This document shows, in pieces, positions 13,801-48,693 of a DNA stretch of 61,683 bases. Under the pieces are notes generated by a model. It did no database searches and had not been told where the DNA came from. It saw only the letters and a program-made list of their open reading frames with translations. The DNA is taken from IMG/VR virus record IMGVR_UViG_3300044878_000127, positions 1 to 61,683 of that record; one strand, written 5' to 3'. The stretch's first letter is position 1, and every line of letters starts with the position of its first letter. The translations under genes and the position numbers were made by a program. This stretch comes from a virus. Its lineage: Duplodnaviria > Caudoviricetes.

Positions 13801-16800
13801 ATTACAACAAAGGCGGCGGTTTTGATCCGTTCGCCTCGGGCCTGGCCAGCATCACCGAGCCGGACGTGCGCGCCCTGGCCCGCGAAGCCTTTGCCGCGCG
13901 TCCGGACATCTTCAAGAAAATGGACTTGAAAGGCCTGTTCTCGCCGATCGATACCTTGTCGGCGGCCTTCCCTGACGCCTTGTTCTTCAACGGCACCGTG
14001 CCGAAAGCCAAGCGCCGGGCGAATGCTGACACCTTCAACGACGATAACAGCGGCAAAGACCTGATCGTCTTGCAGTCGGATGCCGGCCGCGAAGGTGTGA
14101 GCCTGCACGACACCAGCGGCAAGCACATGCGCGTGCTGATCAACCTCGGAATGCCCGGCAAGCCGGTCGCCGCGATCCAGATCGAAGGCCGCACCTACCG
14201 CACCGGCCAAGCCAGCGACGCGGCATTCCGCTACCTGACCACCGGCACGGCATGGGAAGCCAGCGCCTTCGCCAGCAAGATCGCCGAGCGCGCCTCGACC
14301 GCTGAAAACTTGGCGCTGGGCACCGACGCCCGCGGCCTGAAACAATCGTTCATCGACGCCTACAACGGCGCCGAAGACCTGGCCCCGAGCGCTGACGACG
14401 GCAAGGGCGGCAAGGCCATCGACCGTGAACTGGCGGCTACCGCCACACTGAGCCCGTTCAACAAGGCCAAGGCCTACTACTTCGCCCAACAGAAGAACAG
14501 CAAGCGCCGCGACCAGCGCGAAGGCGTGGATTACTTCGCCACCCCGGAACCGGTCGGCTTCAAGATGGCCGAGTGGGCCAACATCCAGAAGGGCGACGAC
14601 GTACTGGAACCGTCGGCCGGGCATGGCGCCATCGCGCGATTCTTCCCGCCGCAAACCAACGTCACCATGGTCGAGCCGAGTTATGACCTGTCGCAGCGCG
14701 CGGCGCTGGCCAATGGTCAAGCACGGATCATCAACGACACCTTTGAGTCGCTGCACCTGACCAACAAGTACGATGCGATTGTGATGAACCCGCCGTACGG
14801 CAATGGCGGCAAGACAGCCATCGAGCACGTCGCCAAGGCGGCCAAGCATCTGCGCGAAGGCGGGCGGATCGTTGCCTTGATTCCGCGCGGCGGCCTGACT
14901 GACAAGCGCCTGGCGGCCTTCCTCGAAAGCGAAGAGGCGCAAGACCTGCACCGCGTTGCGACCTTCACCATGCCGGCGTCGACCTTCGAGCGCGCCGGCA
15001 CCTCGGTGAACACGCAAGTGATCGTACTGGAAAAACACAGCAACCCGGACGATGCGCAGAACATCCACGCGCGCACCATCAACCTGGACAACGCCCAATC
15101 GACCGGCGAACTGTTCGACCGCATCGAGCACCTGGACCTGCCCGACCGCATGCCGAGCAGCAAGCCTGAAGTTAAACCGGTGATGATTGAGCACGTCACT
15201 GGCAAAGGTAAGACCCTCACCGGTATCGTGCGCACCGACCTGACCAAGGACGAAGCCAAGGAAATCGACCCGTACACCTTCCCGAAAAATGGCGGCTTTT
15301 TCATCCGCTCGAAATACCTCGGTGATGGCAACCGGTTGTCCGTGGCAGCGCCAACCGGCGACCCGGCCTCGCACCAGGAAGTGCGCGACGCGATCACGCA
15401 AGGCCCGTTCGGCACGGTGGTCAAGAAGCTGATCGACAGCGGCAACATCGTGGTGCACGGCAATGTGCAGTCGCTGCCGGACGGCGTAACACCGGTTACC
15501 GGCATGCAAGCGGTCACCACGCCCGACGGCAAGGTGCATTTGGTCGCGGCCAACCTGACCCCGGGCAACGCCAACGGCGTGTTGCTGCATGAAATGTTTC
15601 ACAGCGGTGGTGAAACGCTGGTGGGCTCCAAGCGCTGGGCCGGCCTGATGTCGCGCCTGGACGGTTTGCAGCGACAGGCCGAGCAATCCACCGGCAAAGC
15701 CCGCGCCGTGTTTGATCGGGCGCGTGAGCGCGTGCAGCAAGCACAAGCGCAAGGCGCCGTGGCAGAGAGCATGAGCGCCGAAGAGTTCGGTGCCTACGCG
15801 ATCGAGGAATACGAGCAGCTGCCGAAGGCGTTCCGCTCTTGGGTAGATGACCTGGTGGGCGCGATCAAGCATTGGCTGTTCAGCCGTTACGGCAAGCAGC
15901 TGGGCCAGGTCACCCCGGCGCAGTTGCGTGCGATGGCCAAGGACGCGCTGATTTCCATGGCCCTGGCCAAGCGTGGCGAGTTGTTCGGCCCGGCCGGGAC
16001 CATGTTCAGCGTGCGCCCGTCGAAGGTGTTCAAAGACCTGACCGACAAACAGAAATCGTTCCTCGACAAGATCGGCCCGGAGAAGCTGCCGCAGGTATTG
16101 GCTGACCGCTGGCGCCAGCTGACCGATAACCTCGGTCTACGCATCCGCCAGGCCGGTGTCGACCGCTATGCCTCGCTGCTGCGCAATGACAAAGCGCTGT
16201 ACGGCGCCGAGACGCTGGAAGGCTCGATTGCCGACAGTTCTTGGGTACTGGCGCGCATGAGCCCGGCCGCGGGCGGCGCCGTTCACGCACTGCTGAACAA
16301 CGGCCGTATCTACCGTGACGCTGATCAGAAGGTTATCGACATCCGCGACGGCACCACCGGGCTGGGCGCCACCTTGCGCAAGCTGGGGAGTCCTGCCGAA
16401 ATCGACCGCTTCATGGGATGGATTGCGGCCAACCGCTCGAAACGCCTGCTCGGCGAAGGCCGTGAAAACCTGTTCACCCCGGATGAAATCGAGGCGGGCA
16501 TTAAACTGTCGGCCGGCAAACTGCTCGACGGCAAGCCGCGCGGCATTCTTTACCAGCAAGCCTGGAAGGAATTCCAACAGCACCGCGACGACGTGCTGGG
16601 CATCGCCGAGGCTACCGGGATCATCACCCCGGAACAGCGCGCGACCTGGAGCGATGAGTTTTATGTGCCGTTCTATCGAGTGATCGATAGCGACAACCTC
16701 GGCGGGCCGAAGTCGGGCGGCGGTGGCTTGTCGCGTCAGCAAGCGTTCAAGAAACTGAAGGGCGGGCGCCAGCACCTTAACGATTTGCTGGAAAACACCC

Positions 16801-47119: not shown

Positions 47120-47195
47120 TGCGTGGTAGCTCAGCGGTCAGAGCGCATGGTTCATACCCATGATGTCGCCGGTTCGAATCCGGCCCTCGCTACCA
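47120..47195 (+). tRNA. tRNA with CAT anticodon (Met, fMet-like or Ile2)
   Basis: Cloverleaf, TTCGAAT T-loop, encoded CCA; mismatches at 1:72 and 5:68. Confidence 0.85.
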
Positions 47196-47200
47196 GTTTC

Positions 47201-47275
47201 GCCCCCATAGCTCAGTTGGTAGAGTCCGCGGCTGTTAACCGCGTTGTCCCTGGTTCGAGTCCAGGCGTGCCAGCA
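47201..47275 (+). pseudogene. tRNA-Asn(GTT) with a non-pairing acceptor stem
   Basis: D, anticodon and T arms intact; 5' GCCCCCA cannot pair with 3' CGTGCCA; no CCA after the discriminator. Confidence 0.75.
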
Positions 47276-47305: not shown

Positions 47306-47701
47306 TTGAAAAAGCAAATCCAGCTTGGAATGAATCCAGGCACCGCAAGCAACAGGCTTGTCAAAGACATACTGTTCAAATTCCTTTCGGATGCCGGGCA
47401 TGTATGCCACCAATGCGACAAGCCTATGACGCGCGAGAACTTTTCCATCGAGCACAAAGAACCATGGCTTGATAGTGAAGACCCGCAGAAGGCGTTTTTC
47501 GATCTTGAAAACATCGCCTTCAGTCACCGTAAATGCAATTCGGGAGAGCGAAGGGTTGGCAATCCAGCGCAATGCGGTACAAACTCCCGCTACGTCAGTG
47601 GTTGCCGCTGTGTTGATTGCAAGACCGCTCACCGTGCCTACGCTCAAAAGAATTACACTCCTGAGAAGCGGAGCGAGCGATACCAGCGAAGCGGCAAATA
47701 G
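47306..47701 (+). CDS. HNH endonuclease in the tRNA island
   Basis: QLGMNPGTASNRL...CHQC...SIEHKEPW...NIAFSHRKCN. Confidence 0.85.
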   Translation: MKKQIQLGMNPGTASNRLVKDILFKFLSDAGHVCHQCDKPMTRENFSIEHKEPWLDSEDPQKAFFDLENIAFSHRKCNSGERRVGNPAQCGTNSRYVSGCRCVDCKTAHRAYAQKNYTPEKRSERYQRSGK

Positions 47702-47751
47702 AGTCCTGAAGCAAAGTCGTGGCTCCCCAGCTACCAGCCCGCACATGCGGG

Positions 47752-47919
47752 GTTCGTCTTTATCAGGTAGCACATAGGTAAGCTCAGCGGTAGAGCTACG
47801 GCTTGGGAAGCTGGCCAGCAGACAGTTCATGAAGGGCATGCCCTGATTGCCTTGTCACCCTACGCTCCGTGGTCGCGGGTTCAATTCCCGCGCTGTGTGC
47901 TACCTGATACAGATGGAAC
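47752..47919 (+). ncRNA. tRNA-like RNA with expanded anticodon domain on a long terminal stem
   Basis: D arm 47782-47796, T arm 47875-47891, 17-bp stem 47761-47777/47893-47909. Confidence 0.7.
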
Positions 47920-47989
47920 GCCTTGCTTAGGCGCTAAGTTGGAGGGAGCGTTGAACATACCCGTGCGGTCCCTGTTCGATTGCGCGATA

Positions 47990-48316
47990 GAGGGTGGTGT
48001 ATGTGACTCCCGAGAGCCACCCCAAAGCCAGATTTGAGCACTGGCCTGATGTATCCAGTTGCTGTCCTGGGATGCGGTCCCGCGCGGGAGTTTGTGCCGC
48101 TGTAAGTCCAGGCTGTATCTGAAAGAGCGTGGGCGTGCAAAACTGAAACCTTCGATACGGTGGCTGTACCAAATCCCGATTGGCGCCGATTGCAAAGAAG
48201 GTGGCTCGCTCTTTTTCAGATGCAGATGACCACCAGTAATGATTCCGGCAGCAATGCCGGCTATGGCCGGACCTGGACCGCCTGACCCTGTAAAGGGACG
48301 TGATCTAAGTCATCTG
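47990..48316 (+). ncRNA. Candidate structured ncRNA array
   Basis: Consecutive nested stems, GNRA-capped hairpin, no credible ORF; strand inferred from G-U pairs and context. Confidence 0.5.
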
Positions 48317-48353
48317 TCCTAATTCACCCAACCCAAACCTGATGGAGCAGTAC

Positions 48354-48641
48354 ATGATGATCAAACGATTCCTCTGTTTCGCTGCGCTGGCTGTCTGCGC
48401 ATGTTTCGGCCCGTCCGCGTTCGCACTGGAGCGACCGGTAAGCTATCTGGCCGCCAAGTTTGACCAGATGCCAGACACGCACCTGACCGCCACCGCCCGC
48501 CTGGAGTTGACCCTTGCTCAGTGGCGAGAGGGCAGCGAAGCCGGCAATGACGCCTTGAGTTCCAACCTGCGCGCATCGAGCAATCATTTCATCATGGCCT
48601 CGGTCAATACCCCGGATGAACCTGGTGTTGATCTGACCTGA
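48354..48641 (+). CDS. Hypothetical protein with signal-peptide-like N-terminus
   Basis: GGAG RBS; KRFLCFAALAVCACFGPSAFA. Confidence 0.65.
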   Translation: MMIKRFLCFAALAVCACFGPSAFALERPVSYLAAKFDQMPDTHLTATARLELTLAQWREGSEAGNDALSSNLRASSNHFIMASVNTPDEPGVDLT

Positions 48642-48656
48642 TAGCAGCGTCACCCG

Positions 48657-48693
48657 AAAAGCCCCGACTCGGTACACGGCTCGGGGCTTTTTT
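48657..48693 (+). terminator. Rho-independent terminator
   Basis: AAAAGCCCCGA...TCGGGGCTTTTTT. Confidence 0.85.

Follow-up and report, generated by a model that had tools for sequence, protein, structure and literature searches.

A tRNA-shaped RNA element as exchangeable cargo of a predicted RNase III-type stalk in a tailed phage

In this study, we analyzed a 61,683-bp stretch of phage DNA (hereafter the window), which is a complete virus record with direct terminal repeats, and found that the element at 47752-47919 has a real tRNA-like fold but is not a conserved standalone RNA. As related phages fill the same place with unrelated sequences, it is one interchangeable cargo of a swappable slot. 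The slot is closed by a long stalk that covaries across a family of such units and is enriched for base pairs preferred by RNase III. Taken together, the structure, the exchange, the covarying RNase III-type stalk and its processing make up a proposal that we consider quite probable. The complete chain, in which RNase III would release a non-decoding tRNA chassis displaying a 65-nt payload against host defences, is more tentative, and here we stand somewhat closer to doubt than to belief.

Genome setting of the array

The window encodes a 3602-aa DarB-like protein, RecE/RecT-like genes, terminase, portal and capsid (PHROG search), and its TerL is 53-60% identical to the TerL of Itty13, Parlo, Skulduggery and Bcep22; by sequence, the phage can be classed as Bcep22/Itty13-like. 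Its host is likely a Pseudomonas, because the tRNA, HNH and small-ORF sequences near the element matched Pseudomonas phages. Upstream of terS, Itty13, Parlo, Bcep22 and Skulduggery have no annotated RNA genes, and no match to the array was detected by BLAST.

The array lies on the + strand. It opens with a tRNA-Met and a damaged tRNA-Asn, continues with an HNH gene and ∼600 non-coding bases, and ends with a 99-aa ORF and a terminator, followed by terS. The tRNA-Met(CAT) at its head (47120-47195) was called by ARAGORN and matched the Rfam model with 63.2 bits. The following tRNA (47201-47275) has an Asn(GTT) anticodon and an unpaired acceptor, and only positions 8-63 of the Rfam model were matched. 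Since the contig from run X2 carries ∼79 more bases at this site, with the D arm repeated, the window copy is likely a Thr/Asn fusion that arose by deletion of one tRNA unit, or alternatively the result of an assembly collapse. The HNH endonuclease gene (47306-47701; phrog_23251, E-value 1.6e-38; Pfam HNH) separates the tRNAs from the cassette array. By eye, an HNH-like ORF was also seen at the matching array position of one relative (L057), and in another (L059) an ORF substitutes for both slots.

The non-coding part begins with the constant leader of slot 1 (47703-47760), recognized by comparison with relatives, which contains a hairpin (47738-47751) and the outer 5' stalk arm (47752-47760). 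Behind it are the slot-1 unit (47761-47909), a second type of tRNA-shaped scaffold, which carries a variable payload of its own (47910-48054; found by comparison with L055 and L058), a constant element (48060-48115) and the slot-2 unit (48116-48222), which is a second stalk-closed variable cargo. The two structured constant elements, 47703-47751 and 48060-48115, are kept in close relatives and have no Rfam match. The 99-aa ORF that accompanies these arrays (48342-48641) gave no PHROG or Pfam match; it has a hydrophobic N-terminus and also occurs with RNA arrays in different phages (L199 and L207). An intrinsic-terminator-like hairpin (48657-48693) marks the array end before terS (48766). No sigma-70 promoter was called within the window, and in the relative L058 one was called before its tRNA. 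It should be noted that a tRNA-Ala reported by ARAGORN at 14591-14666 (- strand), inside the giant gene, has no Rfam support and is likely spurious.

Fold of the tRNA-shaped element

A previous sequence-only reading described the element as a tRNA mimic with a canonical elbow, a structured insert in place of the anticodon loop, a long terminal stem and no CCA, and most of this description was borne out. The D arm was found at 47781-47797, where the stem AGCTC/GAGCT has 5 bp, one pair more than had been claimed, and the T arm at 47875-47891. The acceptor continues as a 17-bp helix (47761-47777 with 47893-47909) followed by ∼8 outer pairs, the latter with one mismatch, and CCA is absent from the element. 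Between the two arms lies an anticodon domain (47798-47870) in which the 4-bp ACGG/CCGT stem (47798-47801 with 47867-47870) surrounds a 65-nt payload (47802-47866).

The region 47740-47930 folded with −86.3 kcal/mol (z-score −4.85), and none of 200 shuffled sequences folded as well; this strong signal is that of the stalk and the T arm. Pair probabilities were 0.96-1.0 for 16 of the 17 stalk pairs, 1.0 for the T stem, 0.85 for four pairs of the D stem and 0.5 for its fifth pair. The ACGG/CCGT stem, although present in the sequence as claimed, formed with a probability of only ∼0.01 in the free fold, and a cloverleaf that includes this stem lay 3.8 kcal/mol above the minimum fold; the stem has its support from homologues rather than from the free fold. 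Similarly, the 65-nt insert stands at the place given to it, but its proposed further folding was no better than chance (z-score +1.2; 269 of 300 shuffles were as good or better). Two palindromes in the insert (47810-47819 and 47833-47844), which occurred together in 4 of 3000 shuffles in a post hoc test, could act as drivers of RNA dimers, with a predicted gain of ∼17 kcal/mol.

Comparison with a canonical tRNA showed D and T arms with conserved loops. Instead of a 7-nt anticodon loop on a 5-bp stem, the element has 4 bp around 65 nt, and instead of a 7-bp acceptor with NCCA, it has a G.G mismatch at position 7-66, the 17-bp helix and no CCA. The two programs suggested by the earlier reading gave divided answers: the Rfam tRNA model scored 31.2 bits in Infernal (cut-off 29) with a 58-nt insertion, which makes the element a marginal tRNA, and ARAGORN gave no call by default but an intron-bearing tRNA under a relaxed setting. 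The latter call, a tRNA-Pro with a 58-nt intron, might indicate an intron-containing tRNA that is spliced into a working tRNA, the more so as a compact form of the element is known (L179, see below). Such an origin is highly improbable in view of several findings. No group I or group II family was matched by Rfam at the gathering threshold or at E-value ≤10, which agrees with the earlier statement that the element is not a group I intron, and RtcB is absent from the genome. The missing CCA, the G.G mismatch at 7-66 and the 5-bp D stem also disagree with a spliced tRNA, and CCA is likewise absent from compact L179, whose own loop measures 8 nt. We also considered hammerhead, twister, HDV-like and intron readings, none of which had Rfam support.

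Exchange of the slot among related phages

Two flank patterns retrieved seven related phages from IMG/VR, six of which keep both flanks, that is, a leader ending in TATC and a GATA-CAGATG junction. The leader at 47703-47760 is kept in six of the seven and partly in the seventh. In the six phages with both flanks, the slot interiors measure 65-143 nt. None of them is related to another or to the window: BLAST gave no cross match at E-value <0.01. One of them (L057) holds another tRNA-like RNA, of a different type; in the other five the elbow is absent from the slot. The seventh relative (L059) has a hairpin and an ORF in place of the slot; this hairpin (∼1260-1310), which we take to resemble the C4 antisense motif, has no Rfam match. 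The boundaries of the exchange could be seen in a 62,299-bp contig from run X2, which closely matches the window on both sides of the slot and has 110 other bases in place of the 141 bases at 47765-47905. The same joint was found in run X3, which comes from the same study as X2. Between relatives, it is the entire slot that is swapped, and the flanks stay constant. This exchange would proceed by recombination in the flanks through the phage RecE/RecT-like proteins; the adjacent HNH nuclease might start it, and a homing nuclease could be a driver of cassette spread.

Other searches returned few relatives. When the element was compared with 50,697 phage records by BLAST, only short tRNA-arm matches were obtained; for the array region there was a single match of 25 nt, to a group of unrelated phages. 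Scans with the leader motif over one metagenome (69 loci) and over genomes (50 loci) yielded no true member among 119 loci, and a 21-mer of the T arm recovered the element in none of 34 loci. A scan for the T loop plus the junction was more productive, with 80 loci, nine of which passed the stalk filter and ∼6 of which were true array members. One candidate member (L050) was rejected as an unrelated repeat; at ∼250-530 of this AT-rich viral contig there is a tandem repeat of ∼66 nt in 4-5 copies.

Stalk covariation and a predicted RNase III site

The junction pattern occurred in at least 120 IMG/VR loci (∼280 estimated), part of which are chance coding matches. Among the matches listed, 63 3' junctions were in array context and 56 had the 5' motif, giving 44 distinct arm pairs; the 5' junctions were defined from sequence alone. 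The stalk covaries: its positions 5-16 pair in 437 of 528 cells over the 44 arm pairs, compared with 271.5 ± 10.1 when partners were shuffled (maximum 308 in 2000). Later counts leave out nine arm pairs that formed fewer than 9 of 12 pairs without gaps; most of these nine are offset by a 1-nt bulge. The remaining 35 stalk slots, again among the matches listed, hold 32 unrelated interiors. These interiors are 67-167 nt long and in none of the 35 units reduced to a short loop; eight of the 35 cargos end in a T-arm hairpin, and as a set they fold no better than shuffles (median z-score −0.26, with 3 of 35 below −1.5). The array motifs were unannotated in 16 of 17 matches in cultured Pseudomonas phages. 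In the cultured phage PAJU2, a full stalk cassette was read by eye in the leader adjoining cI.

According to the accessible part of one source, the pairs favoured by E. coli RNase III at positions 1-4 of the proximal box (pb) are G-C, A-U/U-A, A-U and a weak pair, and those favoured in the distal box are U-A plus U.G; the boxes lie within an 11-bp helix, cuts leave 2-nt 3' overhangs, and in the model substrate pb2 is nt 9 and the middle box nt 12-13 (PMC1540722). We placed pb4 at stalk position 7, a register that was picked after the columns had been seen and that uses the E. coli rules. In this register, 24 non-redundant stalks reached a box score of 82 versus 38.3 ± 4.8 in permutations (0 of 5000 as high), with a mean of 3.4 box matches per stalk versus at most 2.2 in the other eight registers. 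An A-U or U-A pair occupies pb2 in 20 of 24 stalks (99 of 264 elsewhere), and U.G occupies the distal box in 8 of 24 (4 of 264 elsewhere). Further, the invariant outer bases of the stalk form a mirror-image proximal box, and the mirror distal position, which took no part in choosing the register, is U.G in 32 of 35 stalks. The family stalk thus appears to have RNase III boxes to either side of a single predicted cut, as a dyad, and at the family level it has a helix of at least 11 bp with proximal and distal boxes on each side, as an RNase III substrate does.

In the window copy, three of the six inner box positions agree with the rules, and pb4 is G-C, a pair described as a catalytic antideterminant in the accessible part of the same source (PMC1540722). 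Therefore, the window stalk may be bound by RNase III but cut slowly. The predicted cuts, 47766|47767 and 47905|47906, would release a 139-nt RNA (47767-47905) with an 11-bp closing stem, a 2-nt 3' overhang and no CCA. We suppose that the element would be transcribed together with the tRNAs and cleaved at these two sites, and that the same cleavage would free the 5' end of the next tRNA-shaped unit.

Relatives of the tRNA elbow

A D-arm pattern retrieved a single IMG/VR locus (L179), which belongs to a different, GC-rich phage and adjoins a TerD-like gene. In this locus, 49 of 50 core bases are identical to those of the window (all 25 in the half that runs from the linker to ACGG, and 24 of 25 in the half that runs from CCGT across the T arm). 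As the pattern did not select the second half, the two elbows are homologous. L179 is a compact form with a 10-nt segment where the window has the 65-nt insert, and its acceptor has a different sequence with 7 fully paired bp. A looser D-arm pattern gave 10 loci. Six of them possess a T arm together with an acceptor of 6-9 contiguous pairs whose sequence varies; the middle domains of these six are 22-90 nt long and open with a helix right after the D stem. One further locus (L388) fits by eye if a second T arm is used, and three (L385, L389 and L394) showed no fit to the family. Among the loci of the looser pattern, CCA is encoded only in L386. In 8 of the 10 loci, an additional A in front of the D stem has a U behind the stem as its counterpart, a combination seen in 0 of 32 tRNAs with an ordinary linker, which points to a maintained fold. 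On the basis of the L179 homology, the loci of the looser pattern and this A/U match, the chassis can be described as a small family whose D stem has 5 bp and whose anticodon domain is free to vary.

These data bear on two other explanations. First, the interior might be neutral filler, that is, a decayed tRNA with an insertion that drifts inside a stalk serving only the processing of the tRNA precursor or of the next unit. The unrelated interiors without an average fold signal would be expected in this case, as would the signs of array decay in the window (the fused tRNA, the broken acceptor of unit 2 and the G.G at 7-66). We nevertheless regard it as quite unlikely, because interiors stay at 67-167 nt without a single short loop in 35 units, elbows recur, and the A/U match around the D stem speaks for a fold that is maintained.

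Second, the tRNA shape might titrate tRNA-binding defence nucleases or sensors, the insert merely blocking cleavage or decoding; a decoy for elbow-binding defence nucleases was also suggested by the sequence-only reading. The intact D and T loops and the near identity of the core to L179 agree with such a role, as does the T arm in 8 of 35 cargos, which comes from several different tRNA types. Defence tRNases are widespread according to partly available literature, and the accessible text on AriB proposes a contact with the D loop in addition to cleavage of the anticodon stem (PMC12409363). However, five of six relatives have no elbow in this slot. In the accessible portions of the sources, the determinants also lie mainly in the anticodon arm, which sets tRNA resistance to OLD (PMC12445682) and whose stem is cut by AriB, and phages are rescued from both systems by working, resistant tRNAs (PMC12445682 and PMC12409363). 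A pure elbow decoy is weakened by these points and appears unlikely. Of the earlier proposal of a processing scaffold or decoy, the first half is supported by the RNase III boxes in the stem, and the decoy half lacks direct support. In our preferred reading, the elbow is likely a stable chassis for the display of the payload.

Comparison with known RNAs

The element differs from tmRNA in having A3-U70 rather than G3.U70 and a 5-bp D stem rather than a stemless D loop, and ARAGORN found no tmRNA. It is not a YrlA RNA either: the arm order is canonical, the only match to that family (19.9 bits, cut-off 69) lies over the two tRNA genes, and no TROVE/Ro60 protein was found in the genome. Both exclusions had been made before and are upheld here.

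The resemblance to T4 RNA C noted earlier proved sound, the layout being alike. T5 RNA1 and RNA2 (AY543070) and T4 rnaC (species 1 RNA, NC_000866) are 125-144 nt long, lie in tRNA clusters and, like the element, have a T arm near the 3' end, an enlarged anticodon domain and no CCA at the annotated end. As T5 RNA1 and RNA2 share this layout and are already annotated as 'tRNA-like stable RNA with unknown functions' (AY543070), the term 'new ncRNA class' used in the sequence-only reading is an overstatement. No sequence match was found between the element and T4 rnaC or T5 RNA1 and RNA2; they are of the same kind but not of the same family. Unlike these RNAs, the element has a 5-bp D stem and an exchanged slot, and its ends are predicted to form an RNase III-type stalk, which their annotated ends do not. 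T4 rnaC and rnaD are expressed and, in the available parts of recent sources, still described as of unknown function (PMC9697503 and PMC12685909).

The stable RNAs RNAIII, RNAIV and RNA2H of T5 share with the element a long terminal stalk running into the flanks; they differ in having no tRNA elbow and another stalk sequence. The annotated ends of RNAIII, which give all 11 inner pairs and leave a 3' overhang of 2 nt within a continuing stalk, reproduce the geometry predicted for the element, whereas those of RNAIV do not fit. The RNase III stalk of T7 R1.1, whose distal box we take to be nt 15-16 of the hairpin, has proximal and distal box pairs at positions matching the family stalks, also as a dyad. 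In contrast with this model, the clamped loop here is a large exchangeable RNA and the cleavage is a prediction. Engineered tRNA scaffolds for RNA expression likewise consist of a tRNA body whose anticodon loop is replaced by a payload; the element differs in being natural, in lacking CCA and in its predicted release by RNase III rather than RNase P. By analogy, the element would correspond to T4 rnaC and T5 RNA1 and RNA2 in layout and to T5 RNAIII in its clamp, without sequence homology. In the open-access literature, we found no description of the exchangeable slot, of the scaffold motifs, of Proteo-phage-1 or of phage tRNA-mimic decoys, and an earlier one is possible.

Payload and possible functions

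The 65-nt payload has no homologue in 50,697 phage records, and its longest match in the window genome is 11 nt, which equals the shuffle mode. A 15-nt complement in Aurca01 had an E-value of 0.04 over all loci and was taken as a chance match. Thus far these results concern an antisense or regulatory small RNA whose payload would pair with host or rival-phage mRNAs, in the manner of the C4/CI or Pas/STnc100 RNAs; C4 and CI of P1 and P4 are tRNA-shaped immunity RNAs. Such a role would suit the loosely folded and hence accessible payload and the position of sister arrays in phage leader transcripts (PAJU2 beside cI, and L242 between Q-like and holin-like genes), and prophage sRNAs cluster near tRNAs according to a partly available source. 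On the other hand, neither the window genome nor the phage records offered a payload match, the unit lacks a U-rich terminator tail, and Rfam gave no match to C4/CI antisense or STnc100/PasD in the window. We consider this explanation unlikely.

An Rfam scan of 60 loci, most of them array loci, returned tRNAs, Proteo-phage-1 RNA in four loci and one abiF motif. The latter is located in a sister array of a prophage (L242, 1248-1283 on the - strand; 42.1 bits versus a cut-off of 37, E-value 1.7e-5) outside any stalk slot; it was seen in 1 of the 60 loci and is absent from the window. It lies in non-coding sequence flanked by what are presumably a Q-like and a holin-like gene, neither of which has a Pfam match, and no ORF was recognised as AbiF in the 3-kb locus (two ORFs scanned). 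As stated in the accessible part of a recent report, abiF motifs neutralise the AbiF toxin in trans (10.1101/2025.04.15.648962). The solitary motif in L242 is a candidate antitoxin mimic.

We propose that the role of the payload is probably counter-defence. Its specific action as an RNA mimic that would bind and neutralise a host defence component is the least certain step of our proposal. It is possible, if rather doubtful, that in Pseudomonas phages arrays of exchangeable RNA cartridges form an RNA-level anti-defence hot-spot, with the stable RNAs of T4 and T5 as fixed members. If true, arrays of RNase III-clamped and tRNA-shaped chassis would be the counterpart of anti-CRISPR protein clusters and would carry a library of RNA mimics, such as antitoxin motifs, tRNA elbows and payloads of unknown kind. 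The locus would also present stable RNAs of the T4 rnaC/rnaD and T5 type as exchangeable units with predictable ends. If some payloads are defence-neutralising mimics, the constant flanks would offer a way to search for anti-defence factors made of RNA, and natural chassis for RNA expression would be available in the scaffolds.

A second scaffold type and nested units

The window unit at 47910-48054 has a D-like hairpin (47919-47933), a T-like hairpin (48027-48045) and a partly broken acceptor. Among the matches listed, the junction runs on into a D-like hairpin in 74 loci, and at least 50 distinct payloads of 27-174 nt are found between D-like and T-like hairpins. The loops of the two hairpins are complementary to each other, and in 45 of 50 units the acceptor forms 6-7 of its 7 pairs. 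No Rfam family was found for this scaffold. The RNase P processing of tRNA-shaped units has a precedent in P1 C4 and P4 CI, and by analogy RNase P could plausibly act on the second scaffold after its leader is trimmed by RNase III. Together with the 32 unrelated interiors of the 35 stalk slots, these payloads would offer a ready panel for use against defence systems, and PAJU2 is available as a cultured phage.

The second scaffold is widespread (window 47910-48054; L185-L304) and is unannotated in cultured Pseudomonas phages. Nested cassettes, in which an RNase III-type stalk has a tRNA-shaped scaffold as its cargo, were observed in two loci (L266, ∼134-300, and L397, 1394-1541). In addition, the Rfam Proteo-phage-1 RNA lies directly upstream of the array junction in L216, L230, L240 and L250.
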